This document shows positions 1 through 8,077 of a stretch of DNA of 8,077 nt, in pieces. This stretch comes from a virus (taxonomy: Duplodnaviria > Heunggongvirae > Uroviricota > Caudoviricetes). A model generated the notes under the pieces. The model was not told the origin of the DNA. It worked only from the letters and a program-made list of their open reading frames with translations, and searched no databases. The stretch lies in IMG/VR virus record IMGVR_UViG_3300011952_000023, positions 1 to 8,077 of that record. One strand, 5' to 3'. Each line of letters begins with the position of its first letter. The first letter of the stretch is position 1. The position numbers were made by a program, and so were the translations under genes.

Positions 1-259
1 CAACGAGGACGCATAACTTTGACACATGCAAAACCATGCACCTGATACATGCATAGTTATTACTTTGTAAAAACATAAAAAAAGGAAATCCCATGAACAA
101 AAATCAAACTATTAATAAAAATTTTTATATCTCTTAGAACAAAAGATTCTGCTTGAACAAAGTAAACTTCTGAGGTAGATCTTTATCGTTTAGCAATATA
201 ATTCATGTTAAACAGCTTAAATATTTATACAATATCATTGGCAATGATGAGGTTTTAAA

Positions 260-1106
260 ATGGAACTTAAATTAAAGAATATAACCAGCTATAAGAAAGA
301 TAGCTTCNNNNNNNNNNGGACTACAAAGAATGCGAATGTCCTTTCATAGATACTTTTCGCCTATTGGTTTATAATACCAAGTTTGTTGAGGATAATTTTT
401 ATAATGCAAAAGAGCAAAAAGGAGTATTCACTTTAAGTAAGGAAAATGCTGACATTGAAAAAGAATTATTGGAAAAAGAAGCTATAAGACAAGACCTACT
501 TACAAAATACCAAGATAAAAAAAACGTTATTGAGCGTTTAATTAAAGATAAAAACAATAAAGAAAATGAATATATTGATTTAATATGGAATAAAGCAGAA
601 CCTTTTAGATCATCTGACTTAAAGATCTTGATGAAAGGTCAGTTAGGAAGCAAGAGATCATTTTATGAGCAAGTTAAAAAAGCCCCTCAAACCACTGACG
701 TTAATATCGAGTCACTTGCTCAAGAATATAGTATTCTTTTAAAGAACAAAGATAAATTCACTGCATCAATTACACCTTTAGAAAAATATATCATTTCAGA
801 AAAAGATAAAGAATCTTTATCCACTCCGATTATAGACTCAAGTAATAGCTATTTGTCAGAAACAATTAAACAACTTCAAAACCTTGACTGGGTGAAAAAA
901 GGGAAGGAATTATATTTAAATGGCACATGTTGCCCATTCTGCCAAGAAGACACTATTAAAGACAAATTTTTAGAAGCAATAGAATCTATCTTTGATGATA
1001 GCTACTCCAAGAAAGTTGACCAAATACGCATTATCAGATCGTCTTATGAATCCGCTACCATAGATAATTTAAAAAAAATAAAACAAGAGATTTCATCTTG
1101 TGAATT
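260..1106 (+). CDS. 5' part of a large AAA_13/RloC-like SMC/ABC-type ATPase (N-terminal strand, coiled coil, CxxC zinc-hook-like motif); interrupted by assembly gaps
   Basis: ATG at 260 with GAGG at 250-253 upstream. The first 16 codons (MELKLKNITSYKKDSF) look like the N-terminal strand of SMC/ABC ATPases. After the N run at 308-317, frame 1 is open from 319 to 1106; the track ORF 364-1131 starts at an internal TTG and its stop lies beyond the second gap, so both ends are artefacts. The sequence is K/E/N-rich as in a coiled coil. CCPFC is at 928-942. No Walker A is visible and it is presumably inside the first gap. Very AT-rich. Confidence 0.6.
308..317. other. Assembly gap (10 N) inside the cargo ATPase gene
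   Basis: Run of n; true length unknown. The reading frame differs on the two sides (frame 2 before, frame 1 after). Confidence 0.95.
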
Positions 1107-1116
1107 NNNNNNNNNN
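1107..1116. other. Assembly gap (10 N) inside the cargo ATPase gene
   Basis: Run of n; frame 1 before, frame 3 after. The apparent stop at 1129-1131 is in the wrong frame relative to the downstream open frame. Confidence 0.95.
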
Positions 1117-2375
1117 CATCATCTCATATAGCGTTATTAGAGGAAATAGCAAACAAAAACTTAAAATTGATGTTAGATAAAATTAATAACCCATCTATAT
1201 CTATTATTTTGGAATCCAATAGCGACCTTGAAGCAAAGGTAGTTGATAATATAACAGAGTACAACAATAGAATTAAAGAAATAAATATTAAAGTCAAACA
1301 ATTTAAGGATAGTGAAAAGTCTATACGTTACAAAATATGGGGAGCAATAAGAGAATTATGCAACGCTGAGTTTGAAGCTTTCTCAAAATATGAGAATGAC
1401 TATAAAATCATTTATGAACAATATCAACTTGAATTAAATGCCATAAAAGAACAAGGAAATAACAATAACAAAAAGATCAAAGAGCTACGCGATCAAATAT
1501 CTAATATTGACGCAACCATAGATTCTATAAATCAACGTCTAAAATTATTAGGAATTTATGGTTTTAGCATAAAAAAACACACTGAGAGCAATGATAAATA
1601 CATCATATCACGTTCTGAAAACACAACAGATAAAGATGTATACAGATCTCTTAGCGAGGGTGAAAAAACTTTAATTACCTTTCTCTACTTTCTAGAATGC
1701 TGTAAAGGTAAGACAGATAAGAATGATACGGATATGCGAGATGTATTTATCGTTATTGATGATCCAATATCCAGCCTCTCTCAAAATTATGTGTACGATA
1801 TTGCCTCAATAATTCACCATGAAATAATCAACAATAACAAAGCAGTAAAGAAAACATTAATACTCACACATAATCTTTATTTCTTTCATGAACTTATCAA
1901 ATTAGCTCCTAGAAGCAAAGAAGATAGAACATTCAAGCGTGATTATTATCTTGGACGAGTAACAAAAAATGAATATAGCATAATTACAGAAATAGAGAAA
2001 AAGAGCATTCAGAATGAATACCAGTCCCTATGGCAAGTATTAAAAGATGCGAAGGATGGAAGGGTAAATAAAGTTATAATACCTAACATCATGAGAAATA
2101 TACTGGAATACTACTTCGCATTTGTTCATAGAACGGATGCATTACAGACAGAGTTAAATAAACTTGCTAGCGATGATAAGAATAATGATTTTAGAGCATT
2201 TTATAGATACATTAATAGAGGTTCCCATTCAGATGCAGTTAATATCACAGACATGGGAGATATATCTCCAGAGAAATATATGGAGCAACTAAAAACCATT
2301 TTTCGTATGACTGGCGATGAAAAACATTATTTGAAAATGATGGACGAAGAGGAAGAGGAAACCGTTACCGCTTAG
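1117..2375 (+). CDS. 3' part of the same ATPase gene: ABC signature, Walker B, H-loop, then a putative HEPN-like/anticodon-nuclease-like C-terminal domain
   Basis: Frame 3 is open from the gap edge at 1117 to TAG at 2373-2375; the track ORF 1167-2375 begins at a TTG, so continuation across the gap is the simplest reading. Motifs seen: LSEGEK (1650-1667), DVFIVIDDP (Walker B/D-loop), LILTHN (H-loop-like). Downstream are RNILE (2091-2108) and RYINRGSH (2205-2228). Acidic tail DEEEEETVTA. Confidence 0.6.
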
Positions 2376-2622
2376 GCCGCATATCATCGGGTTGGGTAAG
2401 AACGACGGTGTTCACACACCGTCTCCCACTTACCGAAACGATAGCGATTGTACTGACGTACTTTCACTAACTTTAACATGAGATTATCTCCATGCCAGCA
2501 CTATTGTTGCCAATAGCAGCCTTTACACCCTTTGTATAAAGCTAATACCAAGAGCAATGCAAGGATACCCCAAGCGGTAACTGGCGTGGATTCTAGAGCA
2601 GCCTAACTAAAAAATCAAAGCA

Positions 2623-4864
2623 TTAATTAAATCCCGGCCACTCATCATTTACCGGATACCTGAAGTTTACCCCCTCATAATTTACGGTTGCCCCACGCGC
2701 CAGCGCCTCAAGCTCCCATCGCTGAGGCCTGATACCGTTATAACCAAGGTCAACGCGGATACGGGTAATTTGCATTCGTTCCGACCGGGTCAGTCTGGCC
2801 GATGGTGCAATTTCATGTGGTTTTAACGGGCTTCCGTTTCTTTGCTGACGATTTGGCATTCTCAGCCCGTGTTTTAATGCGCCCCTGAGCGCCCTCACGA
2901 CCTTCATCAACCAGGTTAAGCACTGCTGCGGCGTGCTCAGAAGGTGTGGGAGCCGGTAACGAAGTATCACCGCCGGTGAGCTTTCCACAGTTATTGACAG
3001 GACTCCGAGGCGCGGCGATGCCGCTTTTTAAAGTCAAAGGCTCAACGACCGGCACTTTCGGCACAATGCGCCAGTCCGTCGTTCTGGTGATATGAATATG
3101 ACGCGCGCCGAGATGCGGTGCGTAAATGCCGACCACTCTCTCGACCTCTTCCTCGTACTCGTTAACGTCATCCGACGGGCTACGGGCGACTCTGACAGTC
3201 TGGCAATCACGCGGAACATTTGCCCCACCCTGCGCGCTGATATACAACGCAAAATCACCACTGTCTGCGGCGGCGCGAGCAGCCTCGACGCGTTCGTCAA
3301 ACTCATCAGCAATACTGACGCCGCGAGGCAATTTGCGTAGTTCACGGTAAGCCCCCATTGTCGGCAGGCCAACCGTTTTAAATTGCGGGATACGCCACGT
3401 TGACGCCCATGCGGTAACAGCCGCTGCAGTGTCTTTCAGCGGCCTGCCGGTATCGTTATCGAGCTGACCATCCAGTGCATAGCCGTCGATGTTTTTTGAA
3501 ATGTATTTCGCGATATATCCCGCAGCACCGCCCCGGTTAAGGTGTTTTGCCTGAAAACGGCTCCGCGCAGCTCCTCTTTCGTCGCCATCCTCTTTGAGCG
3601 CGTAGCGACGCATGATTTCAATAATCTGGTTACGCTGGCGTGGATTACAAAAAAGCATCATATGCCAGTGCGGCGTTCCGTCGTGGTGTGGCTCGACGAC
3701 ACGCAAACCGTAGACCTGTAAATCATTATCCTTGAATGCCGTGCGCATCAGGCTCCAGATACGGCAGAGATAACGCTGCGCATCCTTTGGATTAAATGCC
3801 TCATCGTTCCAGCCGTGATTAAGCTGGACGGTTTTACTTTCGCCTTTTCCGACCTGACGTGTCGGGTGATACTTTGACGGCGTGGTCAGCGTGATAAACA
3901 TCCCCACATCACCCTCTGCGGCGGCGTAACGCTCAATTCCGGCAATGGTGTTCATCAGCTCCATCCGGCGAATTTCAGGATTAGAAATACTGCCCATCAC
4001 CTTACTGATAAGGTCGATGCGCTCGCCGGTTTCCCTGTTTTCAAGGTCACACGATTTAAGAAATTCCAGATTTGCCTGGCGGCGTGCACGCACATCACGA
4101 ATGGCATGTTTACTGGCATAAGGAGAACGGTCTTTATTGACCTCCCCGACAGCAATCAGTAACGCCTCATGCCAGCGCATACGCTGGCCTTTAAGCTGAT
4201 GAGTCCACCACTCATCGTTAAACAGGCGGGCAATGGCAGAATATGCCTGCCTCGTGGTCATCTGTCCTTTACGGTATTTTTTCCAGTAGAGCGGGGAAAT
4301 ATTGAAAGCACGTGCAGCGCCAGCAACATGACCATACAGGTGAGCCTGCGCCTCATCCGTAAACAGCGATTCTTTTTCGCCATGCGCATCCACCCAGGCA
4401 TCGCAGAGTTCCTCATACATCATGAAAAGCTGCGATGAGATACGGGCGGCAAACTTTTTCAGCTCCTTGTCATTCATTCCAGGCAGGCGCGCATAGTGGT
4501 CACGCTCTGCCAGAAACAGCAACGACGCGTCGGTGTTCATTTCATGGCGCTGATTCACACGTTCAATGCGCGGCCATAAACGACGCTGAAAAGTGGATGT
4601 GAGGAAATAAAACCCGTGCACCGGGCTTTTATTGCGCCGGATGTAGTCATAGCGTGAAGTAAACAGCGAACGCAAAAAGTAAGGCAGGCGGTTAATCGTA
4701 GATAAAACACCTTGCACCTGACGCATCTCGTCACGTGTAAGGGGTCTTTCGCGCCCGACAGCCTCGCGTGGCGCGTTCCATGCATAAGCACCGGTAAACG
4801 TCTTACCGGTGCCTGCAGCAAATGCTGACGGAGGGACAAAACGCCCGGAGGCTTTAACGGCCAT
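2623..4864 (-). CDS. A: Replication initiation endonuclease (P2 gene A-like rolling-circle initiator); apparent frameshift near the 3' end (possible pseudogene or sequencing error)
   Basis: Main frame runs 2813-4864. The likely start is ATG at 4864 (MAVKASGRF...); the track start at 4906 is a TTG. It contains an HUH-like motif (TPHWHMML) and paired tyrosines (GYIAKYISK) typical of rolling-circle Rep proteins. The protein-like C-terminus (VVRALRGALKHG...RIRVDLGYNGIRPQRWELEALARGATVNYEG...) is in a different frame (track ORF 2623-2988). Joined length is about 760 aa, as I recall for P2 gpA. Confidence 0.85.
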
Positions 4865-5129
4865 ATGAGCCAAAAGCCTCTGAACAACGCTTGCTGAGTT
4901 GCTCAACCTGCGCGTTTAAATCAGCAAAAGACTTTGCGCTTCCGGTCAGAATATCGTGATGCATCAGGCCGGAAACGAGCTGGCTTAATTTCGGGTAATA
5001 ACCAACCACCGCCAGCCACTCCTGACCGGCGTTTTTACCGCTTTCCGCTCTCTTTTTCTCATGGAGAATAAACTGAAAGCTGTCACTGGTAACGACATAA
5101 CGTTCGCCAATTTCTATACGAATGCTCAT
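4854..5129 (-). CDS. P2 orf83-like early protein (function unknown)
   Basis: ATG at 5129 with GGAG 6 nt upstream. Position immediately upstream of A, with an 11-bp overlap onto the A start. 91 aa. Confidence 0.7.
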   Translation of the reverse strand: MSIRIEIGERYVVTSDSFQFILHEKKRAESGKNAGQEWLAVVGYYPKLSQLVSGLMHHDILTGSAKSFADLNAQVEQLSKRCSEAFGSYGR

Positions 5130-5350
5130 GCCATTCTCCGGTAATGTTTGTTTTTTGCTTCAAAGACTGACTGACAGGAAACACAACGCGTGGCTGACGG
5201 ATAAGCCGCACGACGGGCAGCAGGTATTGGCGCGTCACACTCTTCGCAAACCAGCGCAGAAGCACCGCAATGTTTTACCCTTGCCGCGTTAATCTGGCGC
5301 TCCAGTAATTCAGCCTGTTGTTCCTGAATAAAATCCACGTTGTCCGGCAT
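5126..5350 (-). CDS. TraR/DksA-family C4 zinc-finger protein (P2 orf82-like)
   Basis: ATG at 5350 with AGGAG 7 nt upstream. CEEC...(17 aa)...CVSC four-cysteine motif. Stop overlaps the orf83-like start by 4 bp. Confidence 0.8.
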   Translation of the reverse strand: MPDNVDFIQEQQAELLERQINAARVKHCGASALVCEECDAPIPAARRAAYPSATRCVSCQSVFEAKNKHYRRMA

Positions 5351-5652
5351 TACCAGCTCCTTTTGTCGTTCAGCTTCTTAAATTCATCAGCGCAATAGCT
5401 GGCGATTTCTGTCGTTAATTTCGTCAGTTCATCCACGGAGGAGATTTGCTTATGAAATACAGCGCGTTTAACAAGTAAATTGACCACATCAGACAGGAGG
5501 TTTAATTCGTTCTGATAAATCGCGATAACAGATTCAGTTATTTCGCGTTTTTCTTTATCAAGACCAAGTTGAATAAGAGACAAATCGCCATTTTTCATAA
5601 CGGCGATTTTTAAGGCGTTATTCAGTAATACAACTGAACGAGAACAGGACAT
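5350..5652 (-). CDS. P2 orf81-like early protein (function unknown)
   Basis: Likely start is ATG at 5652; the track start at 5655 is a TTG. TGATG stop/start overlap with the upstream gene. 100 aa. Confidence 0.7.
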   Translation of the reverse strand: MSCSRSVVLLNNALKIAVMKNGDLSLIQLGLDKEKREITESVIAIYQNELNLLSDVVNLLVKRAVFHKQISSVDELTKLTTEIASYCADEFKKLNDKRSW

Positions 5653-5876
5653 CAAAGCACCTCCCCGCGAGACAATCCGATATTGTGAAATTTTTCCGAC
5701 TCCTGACTGAGCAGCTCGACTATCTCTACGCGGGATAACTCCGCCTTTGTGATGTGGCGAATCATGGCGTCAAGATGAGAAGAAAAGCGCGTCGCTGCGT
5801 CGGCCTGTGCTTCGGTTCTGGCCTGTTGCAGCAGTAATGCGTATTTACCGCACTGATTTTCAGAAACTGTATGCAT
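5652..5876 (-). CDS. P2 orf80-like early protein (function unknown)
   Basis: Track ORF 5652-5909 starts at a TTG. ATG at 5876 (MHTVSENQ...) has GGAG 6 nt upstream and is the likely start. 74 aa. Confidence 0.65.
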
Positions 5877-5939
5877 GACTTTCTCCAGGCAAAAAGAAGC
5901 CCCGCACAATTAAGTGCGTTAAAAACTCTGGTTAATTAC

Positions 5940-6440
5940 TTAATGCAGATATTGCTCTGGTTTTACCGACGTCAGAATTGTCGGTGCATACTCAAACAGA
6001 CTGAATAATTCACGTAATGCACGGAATAAAGCATCACGCCAGTAACATGACTCTTCATTAATTCGCCAGTATGGCTGGTTGAATTCTTTTTCAGTCAATC
6101 CGGCATGCATAAATAAAGTACGACGCTGACTGACTGTTAAAAAACTAATATATGCATACTCACTTGCGCCAACCTGACGGCGTTTTGAGAATGCACCACG
6201 CAATTCATCAATTGCACAAACCAGCCGTTCACGTTCGACGTCGTTCATTTCTTCAAAACGCATCGTTGCGTGACGCTGTTTTAACTGCGCATGAAAGCAA
6301 ACCGTTAACCGTTCGCGCTCCATCATCTGATTATAATAATCACATGTATCCTGCCAGCGAGGGACGGCAAGATGCTTACCAATTATCCGACGCATAGTTG
6401 CTGGCTGTTTTTCAACGAGATTAAGCGTCATCACTGTCAT
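5940..6440 (-). CDS. B: Phage replication protein B (P2 gpB-like, helicase-loading helper)
   Basis: ATG at 6440 with GGAGGG 8-9 nt upstream. 166 aa, the same length as P2 B and closely resembling it from memory (...GKHLAVPRWQDTCDYYNQMMERERL...). Confidence 0.85.
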   Translation of the reverse strand: MTVMTLNLVEKQPATMRRIIGKHLAVPRWQDTCDYYNQMMERERLTVCFHAQLKQRHATMRFEEMNDVERERLVCAIDELRGAFSKRRQVGASEYAYISFLTVSQRRTLFMHAGLTEKEFNQPYWRINEESCYWRDALFRALRELFSLFEYAPTILTSVKPEQYLH

Positions 6441-6607
6441 TTCCAGACCCTCCGGCTTTTCAGAAAGGTCAGAGCCTTCTTTAACGGACTCTGTTTTTTG
6501 GTGCGGATAATGATTCCCTTGCGTCCCTTCCCGTGGGTGATGGTGAAGTCAATCGCCCTAGGGCTTTCGTTACGCAATAACTGAGCAATACAACGCGGCT
6601 CATTCAT
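6437..6607 (-). CDS. Small basic early protein (P2 orf78-like position)
   Basis: Track ORF 6437-6634 overlaps cox by 25 bp and has no SD. The internal ATG at 6607 (MNEPRC...) has GGGG upstream and leaves only a few bp between the cox stop and this start. Stop overlaps the B start (ATGA). Confidence 0.5.
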   Translation of the reverse strand: MNEPRCIAQLLRNESPRAIDFTITHGKGRKGIIIRTKKQSPLKKALTFLKSRRVWK

Positions 6608-6609
6608 AA

Positions 6610-6897
6610 TCACAACCCCATCCACAAAAGCCATGCATCACGCTGTTCAACCGGTCGGTTATAAAACGCCTCACGTACAGCGCGATTAAACTCAGGAATG
6701 AAAACCCATTTTTCACCGGCACGAGCCTTCGGTTTGCAAGGATCACGTAATTCAAGAATTGGTAATTTATTTGCCTTCACCATTTCACTGACGGCTGTCT
6801 TTGGCTTCCCTAATAAATCAGCAAATTTATCCACATGAACCGCATCCAGCGGATACTGAATCACATAATTTTCAGCGTCCATATATGGTACCCTCAT
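6610..6897 (-). CDS. cox: Cox-like excisionase / early-operon regulator
   Basis: First gene of the minus-strand operon, facing the repressor gene. About 90 aa with an N-terminal HTH-like region and a C-terminal ...RDAWLLWMGL resembling P2 Cox (...DGWLMWLGL) as recalled. Alternative start at ATG 6882 with GAGG upstream. Confidence 0.8.
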   Translation of the reverse strand: MRVPYMDAENYVIQYPLDAVHVDKFADLLGKPKTAVSEMVKANKLPILELRDPCKPKARAGEKWVFIPEFNRAVREAFYNRPVEQRDAWLLWMGL

Positions 6898-7018
6898 AGG
6901 ATCCAGCCCTTTCTAAACCACTCAAAACCGTTTAGACGCTGGTTTATTCTCAAATCAATGGAACCTATATAGGTTCCAGTTTTGAGGGAATTTAGTCCCT
7001 ATATAGGCACCATGTCAA
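6898..7018. promoter_or_regulatory. Immunity switch region between cox and C, with operator-like repeats and a candidate early promoter
   Basis: Perfect 18-bp palindrome GGAACCTATATAGGTTCC at 6960-6977. The core CCTATATAGG repeats directly at 6998-7007. A perfect TTGACA on the minus strand at 7018-7013 (candidate Pe -35) abuts the C start codon, with a weak -10 candidate around 6989-6994. Confidence 0.6.
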
Positions 7019-7312
7019 ATGAAATTAAGCGAAAAGATTAAGGCCTTGCGTGAGGCTGAAGGGCTAAGCCAATCAAAATTCTGTGAAATCATAGAGTTAC
7101 CACTAAGTACACTTAAAAAATATGAAGGAGGAAACTTTGAACCCGGTGGCACAGCTTTGCTAAAAATCACTATGCATCCCACATTCCAAAAATATGCTCT
7201 ATGGCTTATGACAGATAAAACCGCGCCGGACGCAGGACAAATCGCACCGGCTCTCGCGCACATTGGGCCAGAGTCAACAGAGTCCAACCACTCCGCGAAA
7301 AGGATTGGCTAA
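7019..7312 (+). CDS. C: P2 C-type immunity repressor
   Basis: 97 aa. N-terminal HTH-like segment and the C-terminal ...GQIAPALAHIG... match my recollection of P2 C (...GQIAPALAHFG...). Lies directly upstream of int on the same strand, as in P2. Confidence 0.85.
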   Translation: MKLSEKIKALREAEGLSQSKFCEIIELPLSTLKKYEGGNFEPGGTALLKITMHPTFQKYALWLMTDKTAPDAGQIAPALAHIGPESTESNHSAKRIG

Positions 7313-7381
7313 CTCTATATAAAGATTACATTTTCACCATTTGCTACCAAGATGGTGAATACAGCGCCGGAGGGCTTTCTT

Positions 7382-8077
7382 ATGGCAATTAAGAAGCTCG
7401 ATGATGGTCGCTATGAAGTGGACATTAGACCTCGCGGTCGCGATGGAAAACGCATCCGCAGGAAATTCGAAAGAAAAGCTGAAGCACTAGCATTTGAGCG
7501 ATACACAATCGCCAATGCCAGTCAGAAAGAATGGGGAGGCCAGCGAGCAGACCGCCGAACTTTGACAGAATTGCTCGACATCTGGTGGAAATATCACGGG
7601 CAAAACCACGAGCATGGAACAAAAGAGTTTAATCATCTGCTCNNNNNNNNNNTGATGGATTATCGTTCTATGCGACTACGTGATGGCATCAGTGCCGCAA
7701 CGATAAACCGTGACATGTACCGATTATCCGGCATGTTCACAAAATTAATTCAATTGGATGAATTTTCCGGGCAACACCCAATTCACGGACTGCCGCCACT
7801 GGCGGAGGCCAACCCTGAAATGACGTTCCTGGAAAAAGCAGAAATCGAAAAACTGTTAAATGTTTTGGCTGGTGATGACTTACTTGTCGCGCTTTTATGT
7901 CTGAGCACTGGAGGAAGATGGACGGAAGTTGCCACGCTAAAACCAGCACAGATTACAAGTTGTAGGGTTACCTTCCTGAAAACCAAAAACGGTAAAAAGC
8001 GAACGGTGCCGATTTCTGAGGAACTGGAGAAAAAAGTTAAAGAGGAGGCCAGCGCCAAATTGTTCAAGGTCGATTAT
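7382..8077 (+). CDS. int: Tyrosine integrase (P2 Int-like), 5' part; interrupted by a gap at 7642-7651 and truncated by the window edge
   Basis: ATG at 7382 with GGAGGG 8 nt upstream. N-terminus MAIKKLDDGRYEVDIRPRGRDGKRIRRKF is the P2-type Int N-terminus as I recall it. After the gap, an open frame carries ...LCLSTGGRWTEVATLK... (box I arginine region). No stop before 8077. Confidence 0.85.
   Translation, partial: MAIKKLDDGRYEVDIRPRGRDGKRIRRKFERKAEALAFERYTIANASQKEWGGQRADRRTLTELLDIWWKYHGQNHEHGTKEFNHLLXXXXMDYRSMRLRDGISAATINRDMYRLSGMFTKLIQLDEFSGQHPIHGLPPLAEANPEMTFLEKAEIEKLLNVLAGDDLLVALLCLSTGGRWTEVATLKPAQITSCRVTFLKTKNGKKRTVPISEELEKKVKEEASAKLFKVDY
7642..7651. other. Assembly gap (10 N) inside int
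   Basis: Run of n; the frame changes across it. Confidence 0.95.

Follow-up and report, generated by a model that had tools for sequence, protein, structure and literature searches.

The window analysed here, positions 1–8,077 of the IMG/VR virus record IMGVR_UViG_3300011952_000023, opens with a segment (1–2622) that, judged by sequence comparison, is almost the entire variable cassette of the cos-proximal hotspot between portal gene Q and replication gene A, the old/tin position, of a P2-like prophage. The best explanation of the whole, to which we assign a probability of roughly 0.7, is that this cassette combines an RloC-like anticodon-nuclease defence gene with a small gene on the opposite strand whose transcript is predicted to be a structured RNA. 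The Q–A hotspot of P2-like phages and its defence content have been described by Rousset et al. 2022 (PMC9122126), and RloC-like cargo at this site is an already known type (system 5 of that study). This part of the locus is textbook-level for P2-like phages and confirms the original prediction of its position. The small structured-RNA gene is the new component: no description of such a gene or RNA beside RloC-like genes was found in the literature. A candidate widely catalogued as a "single-gene" system (PADLOC PDC-S06, Rousset system 5) is accompanied, across three bacterial orders, by an unannotated gene whose coding and RNA-structure signatures are clear.

The low-GC part of the cassette is a single gene starting from the ATG at 260, a point missed in the original prediction. 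The gene and its elements are as follows:

260–2375, plus strand: RloC-like gene (AAA_13 / PADLOC PDC-S06), one gene broken by two N runs; 739 amino acids in relatives
308–317, unstranded: run of 10 N in place of ~97 nt, beneath which the Walker A motif GHNGCGKST lies hidden
931–942, plus strand: CPFC (CxxC) zinc-hook codons, residues 254–257, invariant in 25 homologues
1107–1116, unstranded: run of 10 N in place of ~27 nt of the coiled-coil region, shifting the reading frame of the window
1650–1766, plus strand: ABC signature LSEGE (1650–1664) through Walker B/D-loop DDP (1758–1766), from invariant alignment columns
2094–2228, plus strand: predicted anticodon-nuclease triad, R647 (2094–2096), E651 (2106–2108) and S690-H691 (2223–2228), invariant

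A full-length 739-residue open reading frame (ORF) is present in genomes that are 98% identical. These relatives are 104 nt longer across the cargo stretch, and their intact 739-codon ORF gives the sizes of the N runs. A third run, of exactly 10 N, is located at 7643–7652. The N runs look like scaffold gaps or deliberate masks rather than real sequence.

Conserved motifs and a predicted fold identify the large gene as RloC-like, with a Rad50-type ABC head, a zinc-hook coiled-coil insert and a predicted C-terminal anticodon-nuclease domain of the PrrC/RloC type. The two window fragments match Pfam AAA_13 (E = 6.6e-25 and 1.7e-64) and the PADLOC candidate single-gene system PDC-S06 (E = 2.5e-68 and 2.2e-155). 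The PADLOC PrrC profile gives a weaker match over the C-terminal half (E = 1.5e-13), the protein belongs to phrog_2801 in PHROGs (function unknown), and JGI gives the name 'wobble nucleotide-excising tRNase' to a homologue with 28% identity. Searches of NCBIfam and of PDB sequences with the large protein returned nothing informative.

RloC proteins are defined by the ABC motifs of PrrC together with a coiled-coil insert bearing a CX2C zinc hook and the motif Arg-X3-Glu-X36-52-His (PMC2610378). A serine often precedes the histidine, and each residue of the motif is essential for tRNA cleavage (Davidov & Kaufmann, PMC2610378). In an alignment of 25 homologues with identities down to 26%, the invariant positions include GxNGxGKST (Walker A, read in a relative 98% identical to the window because it is hidden there by the N run), C254-P-F-C257, LSEGE (L499–E503), DDPxSSL (D535, D536, P537) and T571-H572, which contains the switch histidine. 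Near the C-terminus, N644, M646, R647, I649, E651 and S690-H691 are also invariant. The resulting spacing, R647-x3-E651-x39-S690-H691, fits the published RloC motif including the preceding serine.

The AlphaFold2 model of the protein (pLDDT 79.6) contains a split nucleotide-binding head, long helices spanning residues 90–141 and 276–446, and a helical C-terminal domain. In the PDB, its best fold matches are Rad50 and SMC heads; next come ATPases of retron IA, Lamassu (LmuB) and Septu (PtuA-type). Such matches would also suit a Rad50/SbcC-like or OLD-like protein that acts on DNA, in defence or repair, instead of a tRNA nuclease. The gene that P2 carries here, old, encodes an ATPase-nuclease acting on DNA, which points the same way, and a sequence and fold search of the PDB turned up no experimental structure for the nuclease domain of PrrC or RloC with which the model could be compared. 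However, the C-terminal 120 residues hold the invariant Arg-x3-Glu…Ser-His that is essential for tRNA cleavage by RloC, and the PADLOC PrrC profile aligns through this nuclease-type domain. No TOPRIM, Mre11 or HNH family was detected: AAA_13 is the only Pfam family above the curated cut-off on the two window fragments, so that the ATPase–TOPRIM fusion of OLD-type proteins is not seen. We consider a DNA-directed activity of this kind improbable, and favour the RloC-like assignment.

The published relatives of the gene differ from it in instructive ways. Rousset system 5, entered as 'AAA_13' with the note 'RloC-like' and 420 occurrences (PMC9122126, Table S5B), has the same Q–A locus, the same family and the same arrangement, a single large gene convergent with A. 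Its representative in the table is 48% identical over 400 residues (E = 6e-125). The window allele is divergent, and the table lists a single gene without an adjoining small gene or RNA. The RloC proteins of Geobacillus kaustophilus and Acinetobacter baylyi (Davidov & Kaufmann 2008; Klaiman et al. 2012, 2014) share the ABC motifs, the zinc-hook insert, the C-terminal triad and the absence of a linked restriction–modification locus. Compared with G. kaustophilus RloC, in which the triad histidine is residue 737, the window protein is somewhat shorter (739 amino acids), and unlike the characterised RloC genes, the window gene is prophage-borne, has an associated small gene and is known here from its sequence.

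Escherichia coli PrrC has the same overall design, an ABC ATPase followed by a C-terminal nuclease with a catalytic triad, but lacks the coiled-coil or zinc-hook insert that the window protein contains. PrrC is always found within a silencing type Ic hsd locus, whereas the window gene adjoins portal gene Q, cos and gene A. In its genomic position, its orientation, its lysogenic-conversion or phage-exclusion logic and a similar promoter-region motif next to cos, the gene resembles P2 old and tin. The proteins themselves are unrelated: Old is an ATPase–TOPRIM nuclease acting on DNA, and Tin blocks T-even phages.

RloC is activated by DNA ends or breaks through its Rad50-like part and a DNA-dependent ATPase (PMC3458546, PMC3874168). 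By analogy with the G. kaustophilus and A. baylyi enzymes, from which tRNA cleavage, trigger and defence phenotype are all carried over, a lysogen would make the RloC-like protein at a low level and in an inactive state. The Rad50-like part, together with its ATPase, would detect DNA ends or breaks, such as those produced by an infecting phage that degrades host DNA. Sensing would activate the nuclease to cut tRNA anticodon loops; translation would halt and the infection abort, protecting the lysogen population and the resident prophage.

Several points weigh against this account. Identity to proteins annotated as RloC is only ~26–28%, PADLOC files the protein as candidate PDC-S06 and not as RloC or PrrC, and NCBIfam holds no model for it. 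The Walker A motif is unreadable in the window itself, under the N run. The defence role is argued from family membership and context; we saw no sign that Rousset et al. tested their RloC-like system, and in a 2025 preprint the antiphage role given for a related E. coli AAA-ATPase is a PADLOC prediction (PDC-S06).

The interval between the RloC-like gene and gene A (2376–2622) is not an empty spacer, a second point missed in the original prediction. It has a GC content of its own (0.45), and its minus strand carries a small gene that is conserved, with the following features:

2590–2618, minus strand: sigma-70-like candidate promoter of the small gene (TTGATT, 17-nt spacer, TAGAAT), from a promoter scan
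2364–2581, minus strand: predicted ~218-nt structured transcript of the small gene, from RNAalifold and covariation
2581–2569 (5′ strand) with 2376–2364 (3′ strand), minus strand: closing stem P1, in which the first bases of the transcript pair with bases just past the stop codon of the small ORF
2541–2534 with 2528–2521, minus strand: hairpin H1, in the leader
2517–2511 with 2506–2500, minus strand: hairpin H2, in the leader
2494–2477, minus strand: Shine-Dalgarno/start-codon hairpin (whole hairpin), from a single-sequence fold
2384–2479, minus strand: unannotated 31-codon ORF encoding the basic peptide MLKLVKVRQYNRYRFGKWETVCEHRRSYPTR, with its ATG at 2479 and the Shine-Dalgarno sequence GGAG 8 nt upstream

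The layout on the minus strand is therefore a candidate promoter, a leader of ~100 nt, GGAG and ATG. Divergent loci have TTGAYY…TAGAAT/TAAAAT at the same place, and sequence conservation starts ~8 nt downstream of the −10 element. The ~205 nt that follow the RloC-like stop codon (2376–2582) are 83–90% identical in loci where the RloC-like proteins are only 46–70% identical, and part of this stretch is still recognisable in Vibrio. The small ORF has a clear coding signature. Codon-position entropies are 0.59, 0.52 and 1.44 bits, so that variation falls mainly at third positions, and 52% of the codons that differ between sequence pairs are synonymous.

Of the 31 residues of the peptide, 9 are Arg or Lys, and it lacks any hydrophobic stretch. 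It matches PHROG phrog_21154 (function unknown; E = 4e-9) and has no match in Pfam or NCBIfam. RefSeq does not annotate the ORF in the records inspected, and a literature search with the peptide sequence found nothing. Among 1.84 billion proteins searched, 14 short relatives were recovered, with no fusion to a larger domain.

A census of the small ORF was made with a profile built from nine peptides, run against six-frame translations of 93 RloC-like loci. The ORF is present in 44 of these (E = 1e-13 to 1e-24; nothing else scored below 0.3), including all 13 close relatives and 31 of the 80 distant ones. A scan of genome contigs for RloC-like homologues gave, among the matches listed, only distant ones (identity ≤43%). 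The hosts in which the two genes lie within a few hundred bases of each other belong to Enterobacterales, Vibrionales, Pseudomonas, Pseudoalteromonas and others. In enterics and vibrios the two genes converge; in Pseudomonas the small ORF is on the same strand, 250–300 nt downstream, and in one locus it is upstream.

In a contig labelled as a Ureibacillus metagenome-assembled genome (MAG; L014) and in a Vagococcus locus (L043), the RloC-like and small genes are near-identical to Pantoea and Kluyvera loci, which suggests contig contamination or mis-binning rather than transfer into Firmicutes. In the E. coli type strain ATCC 11775 (L005, 1–4500), the RloC-like gene is split by the IS21-family element ISEc12, and the small gene and its RNA are intact downstream.

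Two other interpretations of the spacer were tried and rejected. A hydrophobic ORF in the small-RNA leader (…TAWGILALLLVLALYKGCKGCYWQQ*) lacks a start codon, and its frame is broken in two loci (L007 and L011) despite nucleotide conservation. The conserved spacer might also be a generic recombination anchor of all P2 cargo, but it adjoins an RloC-like gene in 5 of 5 loci inspected among the 94 E. coli genomes in which this spacer is present.

The RNA structure is supported by an alignment of 32 distinct sequences, for which RNAalifold gives a consensus of P1 and the two leader hairpins. Across its 21 base pairs, 94.3% of the cells are paired, compared with 34–57% when the partners are slid by 1–3 columns. 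Compensatory changes occur in 18 of the 21 pairs, and none of 500 shuffles matches the observed covariation. In the closing stem P1, 7 of 8 pairs covary. The window sequence alone folds at −87.1 kcal/mol (z = −6.2) into the same helices plus the Shine-Dalgarno/start-codon hairpin. The final four codons of the RloC-like gene and its stop codon are shared with the 3′ strand of P1, which is the reverse complement of …GTT ACC GCT TAG. Enteric homologues all end in VTA, probably because the 3′ strand of P1 is built into these final RloC-like codons. Rfam searches with the window and six related loci identified no family; the sole hit, RT-6, was at chance level (E = 0.6).

With low confidence, we propose that this fold-back mRNA, locked against translation, serves the nuclease as a regulator or partner: an activator, a silencer or a back-up toxin that would be freed on RNA processing. 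The linkage of the small gene to RloC-like genes persists from 100% to ~32% protein identity and across three bacterial orders. Nucleotide identity of the small ORF falls with that of the RloC-like protein, from 0.94 to 0.81 to 0.62 across bins of falling identity (Spearman rho 0.25, p = 1e-10). Should the peptide or RNA regulate the nuclease, this would bear on how a lethal RloC-type tRNase stays silent without a linked restriction system, and cloning the gene without the downstream 250 nt may misjudge the system.

The small gene is also found without an RloC-like gene, on plasmids and other temperate phages, and may therefore be an independent module. It would then be selfish or defensive, for example a type I toxin–antitoxin-like or abortive-infection element with a hok-style fold-back, hitch-hiking beside an RloC-like protein that acts alone. 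Hok-type toxin mRNAs are marked by two features, a sequestered ribosome-binding site and pairing between the 5′ and 3′ ends, and both are predicted here. Like hok/sok-type mRNAs, the small gene combines a short ORF with a compact RNA and occurs on plasmids and prophages. A locked ribosome-binding site is more in keeping with a toxin than with an antitoxin made in abundance. The small gene is missing from about half of the more distant RloC-like loci, and its orientation relative to the RloC-like gene is variable.

The loci without an RloC-like gene are diverse, and on the E. coli and Acinetobacter plasmids the small gene adjoins candidate defence genes of unrelated kinds. The peptide and closing stem occur on 4.0–4.4 kb ColE1-type E. 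coli plasmids (L094, L096) beside PDC-M12, an AbiL/AriA-like ATPase with its partner; on an OXA-72 plasmid of Acinetobacter (A. pittii; L095, 6684–6782), between a PD-T4-6-like kinase and a DUF3800 gene; and on plasmids of Xanthomonas, Croceicoccus and Synechocystis. Among 38 IMG/VR loci, 12 have no RloC-like gene, and those examined (L130, L133, L134, L137, L141, L142) carry the small gene near CI/LexA-like repressors, ImmA/IrrE and helix-turn-helix (HTH) genes, SRAP or integrase.

Other features fit such a module less well. The peptide is strongly basic and is not a hydrophobic membrane peptide as in hok, to which there is also no sequence or Rfam relationship. No antisense RNA was found, and the promoter scan gave no antisense promoter-like site within 2376–2622; in enterics, an RloC-like transcript that ran on past the end of its gene would be antisense to the small gene. 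The linkage with the RloC-like gene holds over deep divergence, with both genes diverging together, and in enterics the 3′ strand of P1 lies in the last RloC-like codons. We regard an independent module as a tentative possibility of some weight, and a functional association with the RloC-like nuclease as the preferred explanation, though at low confidence. If the module is independent, it would represent a new small gene family of prophages and plasmids, with a hok-like RNA architecture and a non-membrane peptide.

The six examined IMG/VR loci place the small gene in the lysogeny region of temperate phages unrelated to P2. With SRAP (SOS-response peptidase) and repressor genes among the neighbours, DNA damage is a common thread of these surroundings, reminiscent of the way in which DNA breaks activate RloC.

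A broader proposal, which we think rather unlikely, is that the peptide is an unrecognised component coupled to abortive-infection effectors, among them RloC-like nucleases, AbiL/PARIS-like ATPase pairs and defence kinases. It would be stored as a locked RNA, be unlocked on infection and trigger or replace the effector. Unlocking could occur by 3′ processing, or by loss of pairing as a phage stops host transcription or damages RNA or DNA. Once released, the peptide would activate the adjoining effector or take its place, as a host-encoded counterpart of T4 Stp, which triggers PrrC.

The boundaries of the cassette and its surroundings are defined by the following features:

1–259, plus strand: non-coding 5′ end of the cargo segment, ahead of the RloC-like gene, with an old/tin-like motif at ~20–80 and a candidate sigma-70-like site at 209–238 (promoter scan)
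2623–4906, minus strand: P2-type replication gene A (Pfam Phage_GPA, E = 1.3e-123), the right border of the hotspot

The composition of the window had been predicted to switch abruptly near 2376, from about 30% to about 50% GC, with the low-GC gene convergent with gene A. Both statements hold at the places claimed. GC content is 0.301 over 1–2375, 0.449 over 2376–2622 and 0.487 over 2623–8077, and third-codon-position GC is 0.26–0.28 in the cargo gene compared with 0.546 in gene A. In 300-nt sliding windows, GC stays at 0.26–0.32 until ~2250 and reaches 0.50 by 2551–2850. The plus-strand gene ends at 2375 and the minus-strand gene A at 2623. In a BLAST search of 50,697 phage records, P2 and 56 further members of its family (including L-413C and pro147) match the window DNA from 2623–2630 onwards. 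Because this similarity begins at the stop codon of gene A (2623), the right boundary at 2622 is exact.

On the left, the cos and Q side was seen in prophages with a 98–99% identical cargo segment and in IMG/VR contigs, and the A side in the window itself. Similarity common to P2-like prophages with any cargo stops 32 nt outside the left end of the window, so the window begins just inside the variable region. The P2 cos sequence (GTGCTTTCCCCGCCTCGCC plus ~30 more conserved bases) lies 73–91 nt to the left of position 1 in relatives. Of the content expected beyond this end, cos and Q are found in the relatives, whereas further cargo is not: no additional cargo lies between cos and the RloC-like gene. 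Judged by the 20 near-identical genomes, the left flank would be phage (P, Q, cos, cargo, A) and not host chromosome.

The motif at ~20–80, ATGCAAAACCATGCACC … TGTAAAAA, resembles the P2 sequence directly upstream of the mapped old–tin transcript starts, and the same motif is also found in other RloC-like alleles (28–30 nt at 83–86%). From this resemblance, it may be a common promoter/operator for whichever cargo adjoins cos. A terminator scan of 1–2800 found none.

The surrounding prophage is best seen in relatives. The cargo segment occurs at 98–99% identity in 20 complete E. coli genomes. The intact prophage of CFSAN051542 (L002) has the capsid genes, terminase gene P, portal gene Q, a 519-nt gap and the AAA ATPase gene (739 amino acids), followed by gene A in the opposite direction, the early genes, cox, C, int and the host gene pflA. 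P2 carries cosR, old, tin, orf91 and then A at the same place and in the same convergent orientation, as expected for the proposed old/tin position. The proposal that this is a hotspot for interchangeable cargo is likewise borne out. Backbones that are 95–98.5% identical carry ASCH and hypothetical genes (L097, L100), DUF3850 and hypothetical genes (L098) or cdtABC (L099), and P2 itself old/tin, in place of the window cargo; the site matches the hotspot of PMC9122126. The window's cargo family also lies between Q and A in Enterobacter phage ENT4, Yersinia ruckeri and Serratia fonticola, as well as in a decayed Serratia marcescens prophage and 23 IMG/VR contigs.

The AT-rich gene could instead be ordinary backbone or a non-defence accessory, in which case the GC contrast would be functionally meaningless. 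Cargo at this hotspot is not all defence: plasmid-partition genes and cdt toxins are also found there (Rousset et al., PMC9122126), and cdtABC is among the cargo of the comparison genomes. However, among 5426 complete E. coli genomes, the A-to-int backbone is present in 1737 and the cargo family in just 94 (the window's allele in 20). This distribution already largely refutes a backbone gene. An abortive-infection nuclease is indicated by the motifs of the family, by its candidate model in PADLOC and by the label 'RloC-like' in the literature, and this alternative as a whole appears highly improbable. The defence role that had been proposed from context gains support from family membership and from the locus.

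Gene A of the window has a 26-nt deletion after 2903 relative to three relatives. The resulting frameshift, ~95 codons before the end of the gene, splits it into the overlapping ORFs 2813–4906 and 2623–2988, and reflects either a replication-defective prophage or an assembly error. The closest cargo match, in E. coli ETEC1701 (L001), belongs to a strongly rearranged prophage with an inverted segment and an IS3 element in int. Its A, portal, lysozyme and tail genes are truncated, yet the cargo gene and the small gene are intact.

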